From: a virus
Lineage: Duplodnaviria > Heunggongvirae > Uroviricota > Caudoviricetes
IMG/VR virus record: IMGVR_UViG_2718218127_000003
Reading direction: 5' to 3' (one strand)
Length of the DNA: 21,552 nucleotides
This document shows positions 1-17,146 of the stretch, one piece after another. The position numbers and the translations under genes are program-made. The notes beneath the pieces were generated by a model, which did no database searches, was not told the origin of the DNA, and saw only the letters and a list, made by a program, of their open reading frames with translations. Numbering within the stretch: the first letter of the stretch is position 1; every line of letters begins with the position of its first letter.

Positions 1-186
1 ATGGCAGAAAGGTTCGTGAAAACGATGAAGGAAGACTACATCGCGTTCATGCCGAAACCGAATGTAAGAACGGCATTGCATAATCTTGCAGTGGCGATCG
101 AACATTACAATGAAAACCATCCGCACAGTGCGTTGGGTTATCGCTCTCCGCGAGAATATCGACGTCAGCGGGTAACGTTAACTTAA
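1..186 (+). CDS. IS3-family (IS2-group-like) transposase OrfB, C-terminal fragment; 5' end lies outside the window
   Basis: Translation ends ...[25 protein letters not shown], the typical C-terminus of an rve/DDE transposase of the IS3 family. The ORF is open at the window start. Confidence 0.75.
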
Positions 187-223
187 GATACACCCCCTGT
201 CTGGAAATAAGGGGGCAAGAACA
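1..223 (+). mobile_element. Right end of an IS2-like insertion sequence (partial)
   Basis: The transposase 3' end is followed by GTCTGGAAATAAGGGGGCAAGAACA, which resembles the IS2 terminal inverted repeat and ends in CA. The exact terminus is approximate. Confidence 0.55.
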
Positions 224-227
224 ATGA

Positions 228-971
228 TCAGATTCCCTGGTGAGTAAGAATTTTACTTTCTGAACTCCTCTGAGAGTATTGACTTGGAGAAACACCAAAA
301 TAACGTCTAAATACATAAGTAAAGTATGAGACACTGGCATAACCACAGACCTTAGCTACTTTACTAATAGGATAACAACGAGTGCAGAGTAAATATTCAG
401 CCATTTGCATCCTCTCATCAAGTATGATCTTACTGAATGATACCCCCTCTTCTTTCAATTTCCTCTTTAGTAAACTTTCGCTGAGATATAATCTTGATGA
501 TATATCCTTAAGACGCCATGGTGCAGATAAATCCGTATGAATAATCGTTTTAACTTTAGCCCCTGTGCTTTTCAAACATTCAAACAGAAATACTCCAAAT
601 TGTTTTTCAGAAGAAAATGCAGAGAGACATGTAAAAGCAATAGACTCATCAAAAATTTCTATGTATTCAGCACAGTGATTAGCCCAACTAATTAATCCTT
701 TAATTAAACTGAAGTCAGCAAAGTTTATTTTTAAATAAGATGGATATTCCCTACAATCAGAAATTTCCCTTAAGTTATTAGCTTTCAAATAGCGACTAAT
801 AAACTCAGCGCCAAAATCCGCCACTATCACTCTTTCAGGATATGTCAGGAAAAAATCTCTAGAGCTAGAGTCGACAAGTACAGATGAACCTCTCTCCAGA
901 AACACACTCTCTTTTCCGAAATAAACATCAAAGGACTCCAAAATCAATATAACTGAACATGTAGTTGCCAT
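228..971 (-). CDS. AraC/XylS-family transcriptional regulator, AppY/EnvY-like (247 aa from the ATG)
   Basis: The C-terminal HTH region (...WRLKDISSRLYLSESLLKRKLKEEGVSFSKIIL...CGYASVSYFTYVFRRYFGVSPSQY) is typical of small AraC regulators such as AppY, EnvY and YdeO. The ATG at 969-971 is preceded by GGTGGA. The gene is AT-rich. Confidence 0.8.
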   Translation of the reverse strand: MATTCSVILILESFDVYFGKESVFLERGSSVLVDSSSRDFFLTYPERVIVADFGAEFISRYLKANNLREISDCREYPSYLKINFADFSLIKGLISWANHCAEYIEIFDESIAFTCLSAFSSEKQFGVFLFECLKSTGAKVKTIIHTDLSAPWRLKDISSRLYLSESLLKRKLKEEGVSFSKIILDERMQMAEYLLCTRCYPISKVAKVCGYASVSYFTYVFRRYFGVSPSQYSQRSSESKILTHQGI

Positions 972-1555
972 ATCATCCACCCAACTTAACTGAAACCAGG
1001 ATGAAGTATATGCATATAAAGTTCACTTTGCCAAACTTCAGTATAAAAAACCACATAAAAAATAGGGTGTGATAAAAAATACCGTAACAATAAAGCAAAG
1101 GATTATAAATTCCGTTACAGTTACAAATGATACTCAAGAAACAATTCCTTAGGAAAAACTTATTTACAGCCAATAAGTAAGACACTTATATGATATCAAG
1201 TTTTCATAAAACATAACTAGGCTAAATAGCTGCGCCTAATACCGCTACACTTTTGCCAGCCCATGTTTGCCTCCGGGTATTGACCCCTTCTCTACGCAAC
1301 TTCAGTTCCTACCACCAACTTTGCGGCAGCTTTGTAGGATCAATGTCTAAAAGAATAATGGTGACCGATAAGAAAACGACTGAATAACTGCAAATTTTCG
1401 CTCAAAACCTTCCTGTCAGATCCATAGCGAATCAAGTGCTGAATGTCACAGTATCGAACAGAAAACAGTGACGATCTAACCCTTCAAGAATATTCTACGA
1501 TTGTTCTGTTTAGGAAAAGCAAGGCGGGAAGTCGGGAGATAAGTCATTGATAAAG

Positions 1556-1617
1556 TGGCGGAGAGAGGGGGATTTGAACCCCCGGTAGAGTTGCCCCTAC
1601 TCCGGTTTTCGAGACCG
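1556..1617 (-). tRNA. Partial tRNA-Ser(CGA): 3' 62 nt only, from the anticodon stem through CCA; att remnant rather than a functional tRNA
   Basis: The minus strand reads CGGTCTCGAAAACCGGAGTAGGGGCAACTCTACCGGGGGTTCAAATCCCCCTCTCTCCGCCA, which is the anticodon arm (CGA), long variable arm, T arm, acceptor 3' strand and CCA of a serine tRNA. No D arm or 5' acceptor strand is present upstream. Confidence 0.7.
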
Positions 1618-2350
1618 ATGATACAGAGTCGAAAAATCAAAGAGTTAAAAATTTTTCTTGGAATAAATGTCTTAAAATCGTACACGAAAAATCAATGAAT
1701 TACATAACATTAAAGAAGAATATTCCAAGCCTTCTTGAGGCTACTACCTGTTTTCAGGTGTCATTCAGACGTGATTTGCCCCAGATTGGGAAAGCACGCT
1801 TTTTTCTCAGCTATCGTCCTCTTATTTTGCCGTTACATTTCTTTTTGCACTCTAATGATTAATTTACAATAATAATATCGGTAATTATTGAGTAATAATA
1901 AATTGATTATTGCAAATGTAATTTAATTCCATCTTCGCGTTATATTCCAATCTTTAATCTCCGCATGGAACAAGTTGCATGCGTGACTATATTAAGACAA
2001 CTTATAACCACCAAAACATTTGCTTTGCAAACAAAAACAGTGACCATTGACTCTAAGAAAATTCCGATCTATTGTTAGGGTCATCAAAGTTACTTAACAG
2101 TATTCCGAAATGAAAATACAAAGCAAGCTAATTGTCTTATTAAACATTATCATTGCATTTATATTATTTGAGCTTTTAGCTCAAAAATTTGGTTTGAGTA
2201 CATTATTTTAAAGCAAGATAAACAATATCGGGCACTCTAGTTTTTATAATTAACAATTAAACGTCCATAAAATGTTATTTACTTTTGTTCGCTATTGTCA
2301 CATCTTAATATAGTGGCTTACGCCACTCTACTTTCATCACATTTTGTACG

Positions 2351-2385
2351 TTTATGTACTCGCCATGAAGCTCTTTCATGGCGAT
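2351..2385 (+). terminator. Intrinsic terminator-like hairpin in the AT-rich spacer
   Basis: CGCCATGAA-gctct-TTCATGGCG (9-bp stem) followed by ATTTTTATTCTT. Confidence 0.4.
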
Positions 2386-2475
2386 TTTTATTCTTAATCC
2401 AAGAACATACTCCCTACCTATAGCAAAATCACTTTTTGAACAAAAGAATAACGTATTTAGGTAATCATTACGAAT

Positions 2476-3057
2476 TTACCCTATAGGTGCTACTGGCCAT
2501 TCAATATCCGGAGCAGTTGTTGTATTAACACGGTTCAGCAACACCCGATACTTTTTCCAGGCTTCCAGCAACGAGTTTTCTTCCTCCGTTGCGATTTCCA
2601 GATCTACAGCATCCTGAAGTGGCGCAATATGCTCATTCGCTGCCTGCATCAGGCTGTTTTTTGTTTCTTCCGCCTCCCGGATCCGGAATAGTTTTTCTGC
2701 TTCTGCATCTTTCACCCAGGCTGTGCCGTTCCACTTCTGAAACTCCCCTTCCGGGGATAACCAAGTGGCATTTTCCGGTAACGGACCGAGTTCAGAAATA
2801 AATAACGCGTCGCCGGAAGCCACGTCATAAACCGTTTTACCCCGATGATCTTCAACGAGATGCCACGATGCCTCATCACTGTTGAAAACAGCCACGAAGC
2901 CTGCCGGAATATCTGGCGGTGCAATATCGGTACTGTTTGCTGGCAGACCTGTATGAGGCGGAATATATGCGTCACCTTCACCAATAAATTCATTAGTTCC
3001 GGCCAGCAGATTATAAATTTTTATGGTCCGTGGTTGTTCACTCATTCTGAATGCCAT
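2476..3057 (-). CDS. Phage tail fiber assembly protein (Tfa)
   Basis: The N-terminus [54 protein letters not shown] is characteristic of lambdoid Tfa chaperones. The ATG overlaps the stop of the upstream stf fragment (TAATG). Confidence 0.85.
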
Positions 3058-3297
3058 TATGCAAGCCTCACAATATAGTTAAATGCGATGTTTTTGACGG
3101 TGTTTTCCGCGTTACCAGCAGCGTTAACGGTGATGGTATGTCCATGTGAACCAATCGCAACGGAGTGCGTATGAGCACCAATACCGACAGTATGTGCGTG
3201 TGCACCTGCGCTTGCAGCAGTACCCGATACAGAGTGCGTATGAGCGCCTGCAGAAGAAGTGTTAACACTGTATTTAGAATAATCAGGTGATCCACTT
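3057..3297 (-). pseudogene. Side tail fiber (stf) gene, 3'-terminal remnant of about 80 codons
   Basis: My own translation of an alternative minus-strand frame gives ...[79 protein letters not shown], the (G)AHTHSV-repeat C-terminus of lambdoid side tail fibers. There is no start codon; it is fused upstream to the nu1 fragment. Confidence 0.7.
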
Positions 3298-3625
3298 CCA
3301 CCACTTCAGCGGAGTCTCTGGCATTCTTCAGTTCCTGTGCGTCGGCCTGCGCACGCGTAAGTCGATGGCGTTCGTACTCAATAGTCCCTGGCTGGAGATC
3401 TGCCTCGCTGGCCTGGCGCAGTTCTTCAACCTCCCGGCGCAGCTTTTCGTTCTCAATTTCAGCATCCCTTTCGGCATACCATTTTATAACGGCGGCAGAG
3501 TCATAAAGCACCTCATTACCCTTGCCACCGCCTCGCAGAACGGGCATTCCCTGTTCCTGCCAGTTCTGAATGGTACGGATACTCGCACCGAAAATGTCAG
3601 CCAGCTGCTTTTTGTTGACTTCCAT
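3296..3625 (-). pseudogene. nu1: Terminase small subunit Nu1, N-terminal 110 codons only
   Basis: [110 protein letters not shown] matches lambda Nu1 as I recall it. After codon 110 the frame runs into out-of-frame stf sequence (the listed 185-aa ORF is a chimera). Confidence 0.85.
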
Positions 3626-3850
3626 TGTTCATTCCACGGCCAAAAACAGAGAAAGGAAACGACAGAGGCCCAAAAGCTCGTTTTCAGCACCTGTCGTTTC
3701 CTTTCTTTTCAGGGGGTATTTTAAATAAAAACATTAAGTTACAACGAAGAAGAACGGAAATGCCTTAAACCGGAAAATTTTCATAAATAGCGAAAACCCG
3801 CGAGGTCGCCGCCCCGTAACAGCCCGGATCGCCGGAAAGGACCCGTAAAT
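3626..3850 (-). other. Lambda-type cos site (cosQ-cosN-cosB); 12-nt cohesive end at 3803-3814
   Basis: The reverse complement of 3721-3814 reads GGGCGGCGACCTCGCGGGTTTTCGCTATTTATGAAAATTTTCCGGTTTAAGGC..., which is the lambda left-end/cos sequence. The flanking CGGAAAGGACCCGT matches the lambda right end. It sits directly upstream of nu1. Confidence 0.85.
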
Positions 3851-3968
3851 GAGATGCTTTGTTGTTTTCTTGTTGGCTGTTCAACTACATGCAAGCATAT
3901 GGCATAATATTTAATTGATAATCTAATAGTTATAAAAACTTGCCCCAAAACCTTAACGGAGACTAAGA

Positions 3969-4661
3969 ATGTCCAGAGAAGGAACGTTAGATTTATTGCA
4001 AGAAGTTGAAGAAACCGTTGAAATATTAAAAGATACGCAACAAATAAAACCAGTAAAGGTTAAATCAATACTTGAAAATTTAAGAAGCGCATTAGAATAC
4101 GTTGCGAATGATAGTTATGAAAAACATACCACTAACCAATCAACCCCTCGGCCAAAAATTTATTTCCCATACGGCGAGAAAAAATTTTTAGATGCTTTCT
4201 TTATTAAAAAATTAAACTGCCAGCAACCTGAATTATCTCCATTATATGCAGTTTTTGTTTCAATCCAAGACTATCAAACTGGTAATAACTGGCTTGGAAT
4301 GATGTGTAACCTCACGAACGAAGTAAAACATAGGAAACCAATCCCATTGAGTGAAGATAGTATTGTTCGAGGAATAGATGTTAATATCAATGGGTTTGGA
4401 TTAATTAAGACAGATGCTACATCAAAAATCATTTTCAGAGATAATTTCACCAATGGACAGAGAATTGAAGACTTCACCATTGAAAATGGTAAAGTTGAAA
4501 AATCAGGGAACGGAATCCCCATCAATATTAACATAACCGAAGAGAAAAAAATAAGATTCCACGGTACAGATTATGAGGTCATTCCTTTTGTAGAGTTATG
4601 TCTAAAAGAAATAAGAGATTTTGTTAATGAAGCATATGAAATTTTAGATGCCATTGAATAA
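3969..4661 (+). CDS. Hypothetical protein, 230 aa, no recognisable domain; gene at the bor position between Rz and cos
   Basis: ATG at 3969 is preceded by GGAG with 7-nt spacing. The gene is AT-rich relative to its neighbours and lies on the strand opposite the late genes. The product is hydrophilic with no signal peptide. Confidence 0.7.
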   Translation: MSREGTLDLLQEVEETVEILKDTQQIKPVKVKSILENLRSALEYVANDSYEKHTTNQSTPRPKIYFPYGEKKFLDAFFIKKLNCQQPELSPLYAVFVSIQDYQTGNNWLGMMCNLTNEVKHRKPIPLSEDSIVRGIDVNINGFGLIKTDATSKIIFRDNFTNGQRIEDFTIENGKVEKSGNGIPININITEEKKIRFHGTDYEVIPFVELCLKEIRDFVNEAYEILDAIE

Positions 4662-4756
4662 TAATGATTAAGTAACATGGCAGGTAATCTATTTAAACCG
4701 GCCATGTTACAAATCATTGACGTAGAGAAAAAATGTAAAGTATATCCTTTATATAC

Positions 4757-11189: not shown

Positions 11190-11763
11190 TCAATGAACGG
11201 TATCGAGCAGCTTTAACAGCTCAGGGAATCGGGATTCGAAGAAATGCGGCTGCGTCTCGCGCGGATTTGCGGGACTGGTGATATTCTTGCCGAACATGCA
11301 GCCTTTCGCTGTCAGCGACCAGAATTTTTTGATGTTGTTAATCGCGGTACGGCTGTATCGTTCGCGCTGCTCGACGATCCCCAGCTTCACCATCTGGTGA
11401 TATGCCTGATTAGCTGTCAGGCGGATACCATACTGCTTCAGCAGTGCACTCAGTGACAGCGTGGGGCGGCTTGAGCCATCAGGCGCGTCAGCAGGAGCAT
11501 CAATGGCATAGCGCGGTGCCAGATTCGGTACCCTGGCGACGCGCCTTACGCGTTAACCAGCCTTCTGCTTCCAGCCGTGCGATAGCCGTCCTGACGGTAC
11601 TCATCCCCGCGCCAATCTGACGGGCAATAGTTTCAATTGATGGCCAGCACACACCTTCGTCATTACTGAAATCAGCCAGGCGGGCCATAATTGCCACGCT
11701 GGATAATTTCATGCCTGATGCAGCGCAACCATCCCATACATAGCCGGTTAATTTAGTGCTCAT
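11190..11763 (-). pseudogene. Helix-turn-helix phage protein (replication/regulatory-like), apparently frameshifted near 11500-11520
   Basis: The 87-aa ORF (MSTKLTGYVWDGC...RLEAEGWLTRKARRQG) stops at 11500, and protein-like sequence continues in another frame (RYAIDAPADAPDGSSRPTLSLSALLKQYGIRLTANQAYHQMVKLGIVEQ...) into the 67-aa ORF ending at 11190. Confidence 0.5.
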
Positions 11764-12702: not shown

Positions 12703-12903
12703 CTAATCTTTCGGATAGATATCCGGTCTTAAGTCAGATTTCGTAATTGCACCTGACGTGCATTGCTCAAGTTTTTTAGCCAGCACAAAACTGGCTTTTT
12801 TATAGCCATTGAAAACCAGCCGTAAGTAGCCAGGTGTTGAGCCAACTTTTCCGGCCAACTCGCCCTGCTGTTCTTTGGTTAAAGAGTCCCAATACGCTTT
12901 CAT
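12703..12903 (-). CDS. Cro-like HTH regulator (YdaS family), 66 aa
   Basis: MKAYWDSLTKEQQGELAGKVGSTPGYLRLVFNGYKKASFVLAKKLEQCTSGAITKSDLRPDIYPKD. ATG at 12901-12903 with SD GGAGGT. Divergent from the cI-like gene. Confidence 0.8.
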   Translation of the reverse strand: MKAYWDSLTKEQQGELAGKVGSTPGYLRLVFNGYKKASFVLAKKLEQCTSGAITKSDLRPDIYPKD

Positions 12904-12906
12904 ACA

Positions 12907-12978
12907 ATATGTACCTCCGGTGTACATATTACATGATTGAAATGAACCTTCAAGATACTTGTACCTTAACGGTACAAG
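12907..12978. promoter_or_regulatory. Immunity operator/promoter region (oR-like) with two palindromes between cro and cI
   Basis: ATATGTAC-ctccggt-GTACATAT (12907-12929) and CTTGTACC-ttaac-GGTACAAG (12958-12978) share the half-site (A/T)TGTACC. Confidence 0.5.
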
Positions 12979-12993
12979 GGTTTTAATTTCGTT

Positions 12994-13668
12994 ATGAAAA
13001 CAATCCATGACATCCGGCGGTCTAACGCCAGAAAACTGAGAGATGGTGTTGGCGGGAATTCTTCCTTTGCCACTATGATTGATCGCGAGCCAACCCAGAC
13101 CAGCAGGTTTATGGGAGATGGTGCTACTAAAAATATCGGTGACAGCATGGCACGACACATCGAAAAATGTTTCGACCTGCCTGTCGGATGGCTCGATCAA
13201 GAACACCAGACAACGAACATCACAAAAAAACCTGATGTTTCAATCACTAATAAACAAATCACATTAGTCCCTGTCATATCATGGGTACAGGCCGGAGCAT
13301 GGAAAGAAGTTGGATATTCTGAGGTTGATTTGAGCACAGCAGAAACGTATCCCTGCCCTGTACCCTGTGGGGAAATGACTTATATCTTGCGGGTGATAGG
13401 TGATTCAATGATTGATGAGTACCGCCCGGGAGACATGATTTTTGTCGATCCTGAAGTACCTGCCTGCCACGGTGACGACGTTATTGCATTGATGCACGAT
13501 ACAGGTGAAACCACCTTCAAAAGGTTGATAGAAGATGGGACACAGCGTTATCTCAAAGCGTTAAACCCAAACTGGCCTGAGCCTTACATTAAGATCAACG
13601 GTAATTGCTCTATAATTGGAACTGTGATTTTCTCAGGAAAACCAAGAAGATACAAAATCAAAGCCTAA
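12994..13668 (+). CDS. cI-like prophage repressor: N-terminal HTH, C-terminal S24 (LexA-like) autopeptidase
   Basis: The C-terminal domain has an AG cleavage site (VQAG/AW), the GDSM serine motif and a downstream Lys (TFKRL). The ATG has almost no SD, consistent with a leaderless pRM-type transcript. Confidence 0.85.
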   Translation: MKTIHDIRRSNARKLRDGVGGNSSFATMIDREPTQTSRFMGDGATKNIGDSMARHIEKCFDLPVGWLDQEHQTTNITKKPDVSITNKQITLVPVISWVQAGAWKEVGYSEVDLSTAETYPCPVPCGEMTYILRVIGDSMIDEYRPGDMIFVDPEVPACHGDDVIALMHDTGETTFKRLIEDGTQRYLKALNPNWPEPYIKINGNCSIIGTVIFSGKPRRYKIKA

Positions 13669-13688
13669 TCAATGTTTATGAACCTGCT

Positions 13689-13712
13689 TCGGCAGGTTTT
13701 TTTATACTTGAC
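13689..13712 (+). terminator. Intrinsic terminator after the cI-like gene
   Basis: AACCTGC-ttcg-GCAGGTT followed by TTTTTTT. Confidence 0.6.
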
Positions 13713-13715
13713 AAT

Positions 13716-13749
13716 GTACCTTTGAGATACATAATGTACCCAAGAGAAA
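13716..13749 (+). promoter_or_regulatory. pL-like promoter overlapped by an operator palindrome
   Basis: TTGACA-N16-CATAAT. The spacer contains ATGTACC-tttga-GATACAT (13722-13740), the same half-site and 5-bp spacing as the oR palindromes, plus a further ATGTACC at 13742-13748. Confidence 0.5.
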
Positions 13750-13816
13750 CAACAAACAGGCAGGACGCCCACGAAGTATCCGCCTGGGGCATATGAAGTC
13801 CAGGATGATTCGTTAG

Positions 13817-13846
13817 CAACAAAAAAGCGCCCTACAGGACGCTTAG
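13817..13846 (-). terminator. Intrinsic terminator downstream of the 173-aa gene
   Basis: On the minus strand: AAGCG-tcctgtaggg-CGCTT followed by TTTTGTTG. Confidence 0.45.
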
Positions 13847-13885
13847 CTCTTTAACAATCTGGGTATCATCCAACCAATGCAAGAT

Positions 13886-14407
13886 TTAAGGAATCCAAGG
13901 CGAATTCAGATCTCGCCCCAACTCACGTAATGATCTTGGTCGTTCGTACATCGGATTTTTTTCCATAAGAAATTTATTTTCACAGTGAAGGCAACGGCTT
14001 GTAAGAAAATGAGAAGTTTTACCTACTGGAAGCGGATGAAGTATCGATTTTATATTTTTGGAATAACAAAGTGGGCACAGATGCACAGTTATTTCTTTTC
14101 CACTCACAATTTCATTTTTAGAGTAAACAAAAGCACCAGAGTCAAGCTGATCAAGGACATATCCTTCTACCTTGGCACAAAAATCTTCAAACTCTGCAAT
14201 TTTTGCTTTGAGATGCATCACCTCTTCATCACGAAGGCGGATCGCATCGCCAAGAGAGAAGCATTCTGCCTGAAGCGTGATTAGTTTGTTCTGGAGTTCA
14301 ATGGTTGCAGCTTTAACTTCTGCATCCGTTTTCGCGTCATTAATAACCTTAGCAAGACCGGCAGTCTCCTTTATAGCGGCCATAGCCGCAGACAGTTCAG
14401 CTATCAC
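13886..14407 (-). CDS. Hypothetical protein, 173 aa: N-terminal coiled coil and C-terminal CxxC-X22-CxxC zinc-ribbon-like motif
   Basis: ...HLCPLCYSKNIKSILHPLPVGKTSHFLTSRCLHCENKF. The gene is AT-rich, convergent with cI, and has its own terminator. The start is uncertain (GTG at 14405-14407 or the ATG 8 codons in). Confidence 0.55.
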   Translation of the reverse strand: MIAELSAAMAAIKETAGLAKVINDAKTDAEVKAATIELQNKLITLQAECFSLGDAIRLRDEEVMHLKAKIAEFEDFCAKVEGYVLDQLDSGAFVYSKNEIVSGKEITVHLCPLCYSKNIKSILHPLPVGKTSHFLTSRCLHCENKFLMEKNPMYERPRSLRELGRDLNSPWIP

Positions 14408-14876
14408 GTTGAATACTCAGCTAGTTGTTGGGGATATCCAGATTAACCAAATCCTTGTTGTTGGGGAATAACTAGGTCCACCTCGCCTGATGTGGCTAAA
14501 AGCAGGCACATAACAGCTAAGTATTTTCAACCAGAGAGAATCCTTAGCGTTGTGGTGAATGCGGCTCAGCGCACGCGGGTTAAGGTTGAGGCTGACAGTC
14601 GACCTTCTGTGGATACCCACCCGCCTGGTGTGCAACCTTCGCCAGGCACCGGGAGGCACCCGGCACCACAACTTTATGCTGTGTGTAGTCCTGGCGGTAT
14701 CAGCTTGTACCCTTGCTTCCGGCTGGTACCGTCCTTTTTACAAAACAGAGAAGAGCATCACCGGACGACGGGCTCATAACCCAATCCATCCGGGCGGCTG
14801 CCACCGCAGGTGTTCTTCTCTGTTTTGTGGAGAAACCAACCGACCCTGCAGGGTCGATATGATGGGGAGCAGCAAA

Positions 14877-16256: not shown

Positions 16257-16793
16257 ATGTCATTTATTAAAACTTTTTCCGGGAAGCATTTTTATTATGA
16301 CAGGATAAATAAAGACGACATCGATATTAACGATATCGCGGTTTCCCTTTCAAATATCTGTCGCTTTGCCGGTCATCTTTCGCACTTCTACAGCGTCGCC
16401 CAACATGCGGTTCTTTGCAGCCAGCTGGTGCCGCAGGAATTTGCTTTTGAAGCGTTAATGCATGATGCAACAGAAGCGTATTGCCAGGACATTCCCGCAC
16501 CACTGAAACGCCTTCTTCCTGACTATAAACAAATGGAAGAAAAAATAGACGCCGTAATCCGTGAGAAATACGGGTTACCCCCAGTTATGAGTACGCCCGT
16601 GAAATATGCCGATCTCATCATGCTGGCAACCGAACGCCGCGATCTCGGGCTTGATGATGGCTCTTTCTGGCCTGTACTGGAAGGTATCCCGGCAACAGAG
16701 ATGTTCAACGTGATTCCACTGGCACCGGGCCATGCCTACGGGATGTTTATGGAACGCTTTAACGAGTTATCGGAGTTACGCAAATGCGCATGA
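16257..16793 (+). CDS. HD-domain phosphohydrolase, YfdR-like (5'-deoxynucleotidase family), 178 aa
   Basis: ...FAGHLSHFYSVAQHAVLCSQL...ALMHDATEAYCQDIPAPLK... is an HD motif. ATG at 16257 with GGAG upstream; the GTG at 16230 used by the ORF track is less likely. Confidence 0.8.
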   Translation: MSFIKTFSGKHFYYDRINKDDIDINDIAVSLSNICRFAGHLSHFYSVAQHAVLCSQLVPQEFAFEALMHDATEAYCQDIPAPLKRLLPDYKQMEEKIDAVIREKYGLPPVMSTPVKYADLIMLATERRDLGLDDGSFWPVLEGIPATEMFNVIPLAPGHAYGMFMERFNELSELRKCA

Positions 16794-17146
16794 ATGTTTT
16801 CGAAATGGAAGGGTTTCTTCGTGGGAGATGTGTACCGCGAGATCTGAAAGTAAATGAAACAGATGCTGAATACCTGGTGCGTAAATTCGATGCGCTTGAA
16901 GCTAAATGTGCAGCACAGGAAAACAAAGTAATACCAGTGTCAACTGAACTGCCACCAGCAAATGAAAGTGTTTTGTTATTCGATGCTAACGGAGAAGGCT
17001 GGCTAATTGGCTGGCGTTCTCTCTGGTACACCTGGGGACAAAAAGAAACCGGAGAATGGCAGTGGACATTTCAGGTCGGGGACCTTGAAAACGTCAATAT
17101 CACTCACTGGGCAGTAATGCCAAAAGCACCGGAGGCTGGAGCATAA
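16784..17146 (+). CDS. DUF551-family prophage protein (YfdS-like), 120 aa
   Basis: C-terminal Trp-rich segment ...GEGWLIGWRSLWYTWGQKETGEWQWTF... SD GGAG. Overlaps its neighbours, consistent with an operon. Confidence 0.75.
   Translation: MRMNVFEMEGFLRGRCVPRDLKVNETDAEYLVRKFDALEAKCAAQENKVIPVSTELPPANESVLLFDANGEGWLIGWRSLWYTWGQKETGEWQWTFQVGDLENVNITHWAVMPKAPEAGA

Follow-up and report, generated by a model that had tools for sequence, protein, structure and literature searches.

The closest described relatives of the immunity region analysed here are those of the e14 prophage of Escherichia coli K-12 (ymfK/cohE, ymfT/croE and ymfL) and of the Shigella phages SfV and SfIV, together with Ayreon, cdtI and Stx2c phages. 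In K-12, dRNA-seq places the ymfK transcription start at the start codon, giving a leader length of 0 (PMC4681348 Table S3). Further, e14 sfiC has been reported to be SOS-inducible and not under LexA control, and the e14 genes flanking ymfK on both sides are reported to form one co-regulated iModulon, with activity peaking on exposure to peroxide or when fur is mutated. In the SfV GenBank record the cro–cI spacer is already labelled a 'putative operator region' and the cI terminator is marked, and the Ayreon record has a promoter annotation past the terminator, at the position of the pL-like promoter described below. Individual sites and OL sites are marked in none of the SfV/SfIV/Ayreon-type records. 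YmfK/CohE and YmfT/CroE are transcription factors of K-12, yet our searches of the literature returned no published operator sequences, individually mapped sites or binding data for either, and the Reg-Seq supplement held nothing on ymfT or ymfJ.

Two other systems share part of this organization. The Rac (RacR-YdaS-YdaT) and CP-933P modules have the same gene order of a repressor, a divergent YdaS-family Cro and a CII-like protein, and the racR mRNA is leaderless too; RacR is not known to have an S24 autocleavage domain. Rep of Salmonella phage SPC32H (PDB 5d50), which is reported to bind DNA as a tetramer and to be inactivated by an antirepressor, is related to the repressor studied here in its N-terminal domain only.

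The window, the whole stretch of Caudoviricetes DNA that was analysed (IMGVR_UViG_2718218127_000003, 21,552 nt; all site coordinates are window positions), contains at 12703–13752 what by its sequence is an e14/SfV-type prophage immunity module. It very probably encodes a lambdoid immunity switch of that type, with five related operators for the cI-like YmfK and, probably, also for the Cro-like YmfT. The arrangement is that of an ordinary lambda-style genetic switch, and systems of this kind are already known.

The immunity module and its repressor

The module consists of two divergently oriented genes and the regulatory DNA between and beyond them. The genes are:

12703–12903, minus strand: cro-like gene of the ymfT/croE type, 66 aa, YdaS-family HTH (ORF and RefSeq annotation)
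12994–13668, plus strand: cI-like repressor YmfK/CohE, 224 aa, with a putative N-terminal DNA-binding domain and an S24 autocleavage domain

Identity to K-12 is 100% for the cI protein (YmfK), 98% for Cro (YmfT) and 100% for the cro–cI spacer, and the terminator, pL and the OL sites beyond cI are identical in sequence as well. The two prophages differ in the early-left arm: the K-12 pL counterpart faces ymfJ-ymfH-xisE-intE, whereas here IS1 cuts the arm, in which there are an extra antisense gene, a stretch resembling an sRNA, and yfdP/yfdQ. In the SfV, SfIV, Ayreon, cdtI and Stx2c phages, which unlike the prophage here are live, cI and cro have 98–99% DNA identity to those of the window, the OR1 right arm reads ATATACAT instead of GTGTACAT, and the operator centres differ. 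A near-identical cI/cro/spacer module occurs in 2,449 of 5,426 complete E. coli genomes (~45%). An earlier note on this DNA had called the immunity region apparently functional; that description fits the switch and is limited to it, because the prophage in the window is a defective, IS-truncated remnant without int/xis whose replication genes are pseudogenes.

The same note had proposed a LexA-like autocleavable cI, and the C-terminal half of the protein bears this out at the level of sequence. Residues 93–212 match Pfam Peptidase_S24 (PF00717, E = 1.5e-26), and the protein also matches structures of the lambda cI C-terminal domain, with E between 2e-9 and 3e-11. The predicted cleavage site, VQA100-G101AW, aligns with lambda VQA111-G112MF, and the predicted dyad, Ser138 (GDSM) and Lys176 (TFKRL), aligns with lambda Ser149 and Lys192; PDB 3bdn yields an identical register. 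A100, G101, S138 and K176 are invariant in 13 homologues. A repressor of the Rep/antirepressor type (SPC32H, Gifsy) was rejected, since the protein has a complete lambda-type S24 domain in which both the cleavage site and the dyad are present.

The N-terminal domain is less easily placed. Residues 1–92 match PHROG repressor families, and Pfam returned no family and no HTH for them even at E = 10. An hhalign comparison of the cI family profile with the phage 434 repressor, the one classical lambdoid domain compared, gave no match. The sole solved structure with detectable similarity is Rep (5d50, to residues 1–81, E = 4e-4), and the N-terminal domain of BP-4795 cI, 41% identical, has a weak HTH_3 match; the putative tie to known DNA-binding domains runs only through these two. 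A protein search with the domain gave 14 matches, mostly fragments, and an AlphaFold model from the single sequence (pLDDT 31) was too poor to use. Cro has Pfam YdaS_toxin/HTH_3 matches below cut-off, falls in PHROG 35 (transcriptional repressor) and is closest among solved structures to 8co2 and 8c7k. YmfL belongs to the Phage_CP76 CII family in Pfam and to the CII-like activators in PHROG.

Proposed operator motif and its sites

The earlier note had described three palindromes with an (A/T)TGTACC half-site and a 5-bp centre, two between cro and cI and one at a promoter past cI, and all three are present where it placed them. A window-wide scan with WTGTACC-N5-GGTACAW at up to 2 mismatches, a check that it had suggested, gives 4 matches in 21.5 kb against 0.22 expected, all in the oR/pL region; none of 100 shuffled windows reaches 4. 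In the 16 kb of K-12 e14, all such matches likewise fall within the immunity region, and 0 of 200 shuffles reach the observed count. Allowing 3 mismatches raises the number in the window to 14, against 5.1 expected, and at this level OR2 (3 mismatches) and OL2 (2 mismatches) are individually non-significant. A match inside cI at 13359–75 was dismissed as chance because it decays at synonymous positions, and it doubles as an internal negative control. The sites and the elements around them are:

12909–12927: OR1, ATGTACC-TCCGG-TGTACAT (ATGTACCTCCGGTGTACAT), 1 mismatch to the motif
12926–12931, minus strand: predicted pR −10, TAATAT, read from the sequence
12942–12960: OR2, ATGAACC-TTCAA-GATACTT, 3 mismatches to the 17-bp core, 11-nt half-site phasing
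12948–12953, minus strand: predicted pR −35, TTGAAG, with a 16-nt spacer to the −10
12959–12977: OR3, TTGTACC-TTAAC-GGTACAA (TTGTACCTTAACGGTACAA), a perfect palindrome, 0 mismatches
12982–12987, plus strand: pRM −10, TTTAAT; TnTAAT is kept 6–7 nt 5′ of the ATG in 19 loci
13680–13706, plus strand: intrinsic terminator of cI (terminator scan; 13680–13699 in a shorter delimitation)
13708–13735, plus strand: pL-like early-left promoter, TTGACA-16 nt-CATAAT, 11/12 against consensus
13714–13732: OL1, ATGTACC-TTTGA-GATACAT (ATGTACCTTTGAGATACAT), 1 mismatch, occupying the pL spacer
13734–13752: OL2, ATGTACC-CAAGA-GAAACAA (ATGTACCCAAGAGAAACAA), a weak site with 2 mismatches at about +1 of pL
13757–13813, plus strand: conserved pL leader with a hairpin (13783–13787/13800–13804), given as context outside the operator set
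13846–13857, plus strand: boxA-like element GCTCTTTAACAA in the pL transcript, given as context

The five candidate operators appear to have TGTACC-N5-GGTACA as a common core, in which the half-sites are spaced by 11 bp, the step expected if a helix-turn-helix dimer contacts a single face of the DNA. We compared 19 distinct loci from ~15 genera, in which cI is 73–100% identical. Among these loci the 6 bp of each arm (TGTACC/GGTACA) never vary and the central 5 bp are free, with all four bases occurring, and the pattern holds in a wider set of 41 oR and 47 oL sequence variants from ~100 loci. With the family alignment as query, a scan of viral contigs gave 80 loci, all of them 100% identical and so informative on polymorphism, not distance; distant relatives were taken from tblastn against phage records. 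Pseudomonas phage Solano and a Vibrio phage, whose cI N-terminal domains are 59% and 55% identical, respectively, retain the motif, its overlap with the cro Shine–Dalgarno and the 17-bp step from OR2 to OR3; the recognition helix in Solano is REPTQVSR. BP-4795, whose 41% identical cI has the helix PSQLTQV, has other repeats instead (TTTATC/GATAAA). The motif thus seems to follow its regulators across phages.

Within oR, the two palindromes of the earlier note stand, and a third, degenerate site, OR2, had been overlooked. OR1 spans the last 2 nt of the predicted pR −10, the predicted pR start and the cro Shine–Dalgarno; its TGTACC, the TCC of its centre and TACA are each conserved in 19/19 loci, and its distance to OR3 is exactly 50 bp in every locus. 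OR2 covers the pR −35. Its left arm, TGAACC, is invariant (19/19), its right arm is GGTACT in most loci, and we count it as a probable operator on this conservation rather than on its match score. The arms of OR3 are conserved in 18–19 of 19 loci, and all four bases occur at its centre positions. The cores of OR2 and OR3 abut, with 17 bp between centres; OR1 and OR2 are 33 bp, or ~3 turns, apart. This packing of OR2 and OR3 is closer than that in lambda and may preclude simultaneous occupancy.

The promoters at oR were placed from different kinds of evidence. pR scores 8/12 against the promoter consensus, which is under the scan threshold, hence its absence from the scan output. We infer its position only from two conserved features: the plus-strand CAA that corresponds to the TTG of its −35 (18–19/19, with the adjoining centre bases variable) and the A2 and T6 of its −10, kept in all variants at other loci (TAATAT, CATAAT, TAGAAT, TATCCT). 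For pRM, the transcription start mapped in K-12 can be transferred to the window because the sequence is identical; the cI transcript has the A of the ATG, at 12994, as its first base and is leaderless. It follows that the pRM −35 and spacer lie within OR3, which is centred at −26, and that OR2 is centred at −43. The strongest palindrome, OR3, is on the repressor's own promoter, which, like its close packing with OR2, counts against the lambda-style reading.

The overlap of the first palindrome with the cro Shine–Dalgarno, pointed out in the earlier note, is real: GGAGG (12918–12914, minus strand) forms the centre of OR1, because OR1 lies at about +1 of the predicted pR, a placement that makes the leader very short. 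The translational occlusion that the note drew from it lacks support. A repressor on duplex DNA cannot hide the Shine–Dalgarno of an mRNA, and the RNA hairpin leaves the Shine–Dalgarno in its loop and is no stabler than shuffles (z = 0.49).

Just past the cI terminator, whose stem keeps its pairing despite changed sequence in other loci, the near-consensus promoter with a palindrome in its spacer was recovered as the note had described it. Both pL hexamers are invariant in the 19 loci; the arms of OL1 are invariant save for one G/A position, and its centre is free. The extra half-site that the note saw after the −10 is present and is probably a weak full site, OL2, because its place at pL matches that of OR1 at pR. 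OL2 lies 20 bp from OL1, with its left arm conserved in 18–19 of 19 loci and its right arm (G.AACA) in 14–16. The repressor/operator circuit envisaged in the note thus keeps its common motif at oR and the early-left promoter, with five sites and not three and a half.

Proposed switch

In the proposed switch, a repressor on OR1, over the pR −10 and start, and on OR2, over the pR −35, would turn off the cro-ymfL-...-Q operon, and occupancy of OL1 in the pL spacer and of OL2 at the pL start would turn off the early-left operon. cI would be expressed from the leaderless transcript that begins with its start codon. From its place at −43, OR2 could allow cI to activate pRM; lambda cI activates pRM from this position (~−42/−43). 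OR3, over the pRM −35 and spacer, would mediate negative autoregulation, serve as the first target of Cro, or both. Upon DNA damage, RecA would stimulate cI to cleave itself at Ala100-Gly101 through the Ser138/Lys176 dyad, and pR and pL would be released. In this scheme the sites with their conservation, the promoter hexamers, the cI start and the catalytic residues are observed here or published; our inferences are binding, cooperativity, the order in which sites fill, activation from OR2 and the precise starts of pR and pL, predicted at about 12919 ± 2 (minus strand) and 13742 ± 2.

Lambda and this region both have divergent cI and cro, three related OR sites, a motif that recurs at pL, operators that overlap promoter hexamers, a leaderless cI mRNA from pRM and one site centred near −42/−43 of pRM. 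The two repressors also have homologous C-terminal domains, 35% identical, and each has an Ala-Gly site and a Ser/Lys dyad. The differences from lambda lie in the operator sequence, in the OR spacings (33 and 17 bp here, 24 and 23 bp in lambda), in the place of OR1, which is at pR +1 and over the cro Shine–Dalgarno here and in the spacer in lambda, and in the number of OL sites, two seen here against three. Cro here belongs to the YdaS family of HTH proteins, and the N gene is absent; of the two proteins checked as N-like, ymfJ and SfV orf33, neither begins with an arginine-rich stretch.

The five-site map and the TGTACC-N5-GGTACA consensus provide directly testable candidate sites for these two K-12 regulators. 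Their practical value is modest, and they do not reveal a new kind of system. The carriers of the module include, besides the E. coli genomes counted above, Shigella serotype-converting phages and Stx2c phages, and the type of switch appears conserved as far as Vibrio and Pseudomonas phages.

Other readings of the sites

It is possible, though we doubt it, that the sites are read by a single one of the two regulators, or by some other protein of the phage (the CII-like YmfL, for instance), and that the five work in a manner unlike lambda's, for example with mutually exclusive occupancy of OR2 and OR3 and no positive autoregulation. The abutting OR2 and OR3 cores would fit such a scheme, OR2 reads TGAACC and never TGTACC (19/19), suggestive of a distinct affinity class, and cI and Cro homologues co-occur and co-vary, so the comparison assigns no site to either protein. 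Against this, the positions fit lambda logic, since the published cI start puts OR2 at −43 and OR1 is ~3 turns from OR2, and proteins of the CII-like activator class work at promoters outside oR.

A more specific departure from lambda is speculative and, on balance, improbable: OR3, on the repressor's leaderless promoter and abutting an invariantly 'spoiled' OR2 over the pR −35, might make OR2 and OR3 mutually exclusive parts of a pR/pRM toggle, and, separately, the pL leader and an rrn-type boxA might form an N-independent antitermination element. The leader hairpin shows compensatory changes in 3 of its 5 stem pairs across 10 loci. The boxA-like element has one exact match in the window (two with 1-mismatch matches included, against 0.17 expected), lies 3′ of pL in 48 of 111 loci, among them the diverged locus L018, where it reads TGCTCTTTAACAA; it supports an early-operon, nut-like leader.

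That the palindromes act as RNA hairpins (a terminator, an attenuator or a mask for the cro Shine–Dalgarno) instead of as protein-binding DNA is very unlikely. The scan does rate OR3, whose 8-bp stem precedes GGTTTTAATT, as terminator-like, and OR1 RNA can form a 6-bp hairpin. However, the T-run 3′ of OR3 is not conserved and the cI mRNA begins downstream of OR3, while the OR1 hairpin, in addition to its unremarkable stability and exposed Shine–Dalgarno, has its 5′ arm at or before the predicted pR start. OL1, in the promoter spacer, lies upstream of the pL start and outside the transcript, so that it would act as DNA, not RNA. Compensatory changes never occur in the stems, and an identical sequence is kept at five places.

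Host LexA boxes, with SOS control exerted directly or through an antirepressor as in Gifsy/SPC32H-type phages, are a highly improbable explanation. The half-site includes TGTA, as LexA boxes do, and the cI N-terminal domain matches SPC32H Rep, but the geometry here is TGTA-N9-TACA and that of LexA is CTGT-N8-ACAG. LexA-box matches number none in 12900–13760 and 4 in the window, against 7.0 expected, the reported control of sfiC is LexA-independent, and Rep does not share the complete S24 domain with its cleavage site and dyad. Chance repeats in an AT-rich spacer are a negligible prospect: hexamers that contain GTAC are short, and neither OR2 nor OL2 by itself exceeds chance, but neither the window nor the e14 shuffles reach the observed counts, and the conservation pattern extends across genera.

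Repressor module of the e14/SfV family

The region is the well-known immunity module of e14/SfV family lambdoid prophages, with a lambda-type switch. Two divergent genes flank the putative operators: cro (12903–12703, −), encoding a 66-aa YdaS-family HTH protein and adjoined by a gene for a CII-like protein of the Phage_CP76 family, and cI (12994–13668, +), encoding a 224-aa protein with a Peptidase_S24 domain. The surrounding 1.4 kb is 98–99.7% identical to SfV, SfIV, PhiR29 and other phages; for Ayreon and Stx2c phages the figure is about 95%. The module, annotated ymfK/ymfT/ymfL, occurs in 2,449 of 5,426 complete E. coli genomes. cI is 100% identical to K-12 YmfK (b1145, CohE) and Cro 98% identical to YmfT; K-12 e14 carries the same sequence for the cro–cI spacer, terminator, pL-like promoter and pL sites. 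In the GenBank entry for SfV the spacer already bears the label "putative operator region", and the Ayreon record labels a promoter past the cI terminator. We found no individual operator sites or binding experiments in the searchable literature, outside which key older papers lie.

The prophage itself is a remnant. It shows IS1 and IS3 insertions, pseudogenes for KilA-N and a replication-region HTH protein, tail-fibre and packaging fragments, and an early-left arm cut by an IS1 fragment before any xis or int (1–4700, 11190–11763 and 16737–16880). Q, holin, lysozyme and a spanin-like gene are intact and would still be downstream of pR, the cro promoter. An Rfam IS009 match (2516–2714, −; 212 bits) within an annotated IS1A element probably reflects the IS1 sequence and not a separate sRNA gene.

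Five candidate operators

The earlier note had read three palindromes and one extra half-site between 12904 and 13749 as repressor operators. The palindromes are present, at a count far above chance: a scan of the 21.5-kb window with WTGTACC-N5-GGTACAW at up to two mismatches, which that note had itself suggested, gave four matches (12909–13752) against 0.22 expected, and none of 100 dinucleotide-preserving shuffles contained four. The whole 16 kb of K-12 e14 gave five matches at up to two mismatches against 0.42 expected, all at the same sites. Comparative data strongly support the operator reading, but the site list was incomplete: recognition of OR2 and OL2 extends it to five putative sites, with the core TGTACC-N5-GGTACA.

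Putative operators, promoter elements and cI terminator
12909–12927: OR1, ATGTACCTCCGGTGTACAT, pattern scan
12931–12926 (−): predicted pR −10, TAATAT, 16 nt from the −35
12942–12960: OR2, ATGAACC-TTCAA-GATACTT, between the two oR palindromes
12953–12948 (−): predicted pR −35, TTGAAG, TTG conserved
12959–12977: OR3, TTGTACCTTAACGGTACAA, pattern scan
12982–12987: pRM (cI promoter) −10, TTTAAT, fixed by the published ymfK start
13680–13699: cI intrinsic terminator, clean, followed by pL
13708–13735: pL (early-left promoter), TTGACA-16-CATAAT, 11/12 against consensus
13714–13732: OL1, ATGTACCTTTGAGATACAT, pattern scan
13734–13752: OL2, ATGTACCCAAGAGAAACAA, pattern scan

For comparison, we scanned a genome collection with cI. 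This yielded 19 loci fit for use, spread over about 15 genera (among them Pseudocitrobacter, Klebsiella, Atlantibacter, Leclercia, Pantoea, Rahnella and Edwardsiella), whose cI proteins are 73–100% identical to that of the window; SfV and Ayreon were added. The OR3 arms, TGTACC and GGTACA, are kept in 18–19 of the 19 loci around a centre with three or four different bases at each of five positions; OL1 likewise keeps its arms around a free centre, one arm position being G or A. In OR1, TGTACC and TACA are kept in 19/19 loci, and the centre opens with TCC in every locus, since CCTCC complements the cro Shine–Dalgarno sequence. OR1 and OR3 lie exactly 50 bp apart in all 19. Among about 100 loci (41 oR and 47 oL sequence variants), it is once more the arms and promoter hexamers that do not vary.

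OR2, unrecognised in the earlier note, has three mismatches and is not significant alone, that stringency giving 14 matches against 5.1 expected; its candidacy is carried by conservation and register rather than by match score. Its half-sites share the 11-nt phasing of the other sites, and its left arm, TGAACC, is invariant (19/19), A always replacing the T of TGTACC. Most other loci read ATGAACC-NNCAA-GGTACTT, with the central CAA complementary to the TTG of the minus-strand −35 element. The supposed half-site after the pL −10 reads as a weak full site, OL2, 20 bp from OL1. Its right arm keeps G.AACA in 14–16 of 19 loci, a weak conservation, and it is placed at pL as OR1 is at the predicted pR, the AT of ATGTACC forming the last two −10 bases in both.

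A match with two mismatches inside cI (13359–13375, TGTACCCTGTGGGGAAA) was rejected as chance and serves as an internal control for the comparison: the motif is lost at synonymous codon positions in diverged loci, and therefore coding constraint alone does not keep it. OR1 also sits within a longer imperfect inverted repeat (12900–12936; 15-nt arms TCATACAATATGTAC / GTACATATTACATGA, 87% complementary), and several other loci have TAATAT on both strands beside OR1. The longer repeat may mean that the recognition sequence extends further, or AT-rich −10-like sequence may have produced it by coincidence.

Regulators and proposed switch

The cI C-terminal domain is homologous to that of lambda cI (PDB 1f39, 2ho0, 3bdn; E = 2e-9 to 3e-11), and VQA100-G101, Ser138 and Lys176, invariant in 13 homologues, align with lambda Ala111-Gly112, Ser149 and Lys192. 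The N-terminal 92 residues matched no Pfam family, only the N-terminal domain of Rep from Salmonella phage SPC32H (5d50, E = 4e-4) and PHROG repressor families. They are 41% identical to the N-terminal domain of BP-4795 cI, which has a weak HTH_3 match; this alignment puts FATMI-DRE-PTQTSRF as helix, turn and recognition helix.

Site specificity follows the regulators. Pseudomonas phage Solano, with a 59% identical N-terminal domain and the helix REPTQVSR, has ATGTACC-TCCTA-GGTACAA across its own cro Shine–Dalgarno sequence and two more sites 17 bp apart, and a Vibrio phage (55% identical) is laid out in the same way. BP-4795, whose helix is PSQLTQV, carries TTTATC/GATAAA repeats that are unrelated. 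Homology extends to Cro, the Solano and Vibrio phage proteins being 33% and 42% identical to that of the window, so the comparison cannot tell cI from Cro as the reader; by analogy with lambda, both probably bind. Downstream of its cI, the Solano locus (L109, 2308–2368) carries a different palindrome twice, as TCTGTATATACAGA and TCTGTATATACAAA, in place of TGTACC sites.

pL can be read directly from the sequence and does not vary among the 19 loci, its start point being predicted. Differential RNA-seq found ymfK to be one of only five leaderless E. coli mRNAs, starting on the A of the ATG with a 0-nt leader (PMC4681348, text and Table S3). Since K-12 does not differ in sequence here, the cI start lies at 12994, and the sites are centred at −26 (OR3), −43 (OR2) and −76 (OR1). 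TnTAAT is kept 6–7 nt upstream of the cI ATG in all loci, and the pRM −35 region (TTGTAC, 12959–64) falls inside OR3. The pR −10 varies (TAATAT, CATAAT, TAGAAT, TATCCT), with A2 and T6 always kept; pR would start near 12919, placing OR1 near +1 and OR2 at about −32.

On this geometry, cI bound as dimers to OR1 and OR2 (a distance of 33 bp, about three helical turns) would block the pR start and −35, and a pair of dimers at OL1 and OL2, separated by 20 bp, would block pL. Lambda cI activates pRM by contacting sigma region 4 from about −43; OR2 lies at that position, making positive autoregulation plausible by analogy. OR3, lying across the pRM −35 and spacer, would mediate negative autoregulation and offer Cro a natural first binding site. 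The cores of OR2 and OR3 adjoin at a step of 17 bp, about 1.6 turns, which argues against cooperative pairing of the two, and they may be mutually exclusive.

The earlier note had also proposed that OR1 occludes cro translation. Its overlap with the Shine–Dalgarno sequence is real and conserved, but a protein on duplex DNA leaves the mRNA site unmasked, and the overlap is explained by OR1 lying where a transcript with a short leader begins. In the RNA hairpin that OR1 could form, the Shine–Dalgarno sequence stays in the loop, the 5′ arm is at or upstream of the predicted pR start, and the hairpin is no stabler than shuffles (−10.5 kcal/mol, z = 0.49).

Induction by SOS would proceed through RecA-stimulated cI autocleavage, consistent with the aligned Ala-Gly, Ser and Lys residues. 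The division inhibitor of e14 has been reported to respond to SOS without being LexA-controlled, which fits this reading; a sequence search found no LexA box in the region. The e14 genes either side of ymfK form one iModulon, with peak activity with peroxide or in a fur mutant.

pL leader and early-left surroundings

The first ~75 nt of the pL transcript (13757–13813, +) are kept across loci despite differing downstream genes. The genes that pL faces, ymfJ-ymfH-xisE-intE in K-12 and orf33-orf30 in SfV, support its assignment. A leader hairpin (13783–13787/13800–13804) has compensatory changes in three of five pairs, and the conserved leader may act in antitermination or as a regulatory RNA. 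Some 105 nt past the pL start, after a hairpin (segment 13825–13857), GCTCTTTAACAA (13846–57, +) agrees at 12/13 bases with the rrn boxA TGCTCTTTAACAA. Of 111 loci retrieved, 48 have this boxA-like element beyond pL; in a diverged Limnobaculum locus (L018) it reads TGCTCTTTAACAA, and the hairpin ahead of it is altered in sequence with pairing kept. Such an arrangement is reminiscent of a nut-like early leader. A check of the first genes past pL, ymfJ and SfV orf33, revealed no N-like protein, neither having an arginine-rich motif; SfV-type phages have been reported to be without N.

Read on the minus strand, the hairpin ahead of the boxA-like element is the terminator of a 173-aa ORF (13886–14407, −; PHROG 1244, CxxC...CxxC motifs). 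K-12 e14 and SfV lack this ORF at the corresponding position, where it is inserted antisense between pL and the early-left genes. Further on, a GC-rich stretch (14519–14741, +), called a frameshifted hypothetical gene by RefSeq, has a sub-threshold Rfam match to the sRNA STnc100 (40.5 bits, gathering score 47, E = 9e-7) and a weak DicF-like match at 14680–14734; the early-left operon may encode an sRNA here, comparable to dicF in the Qin prophage.
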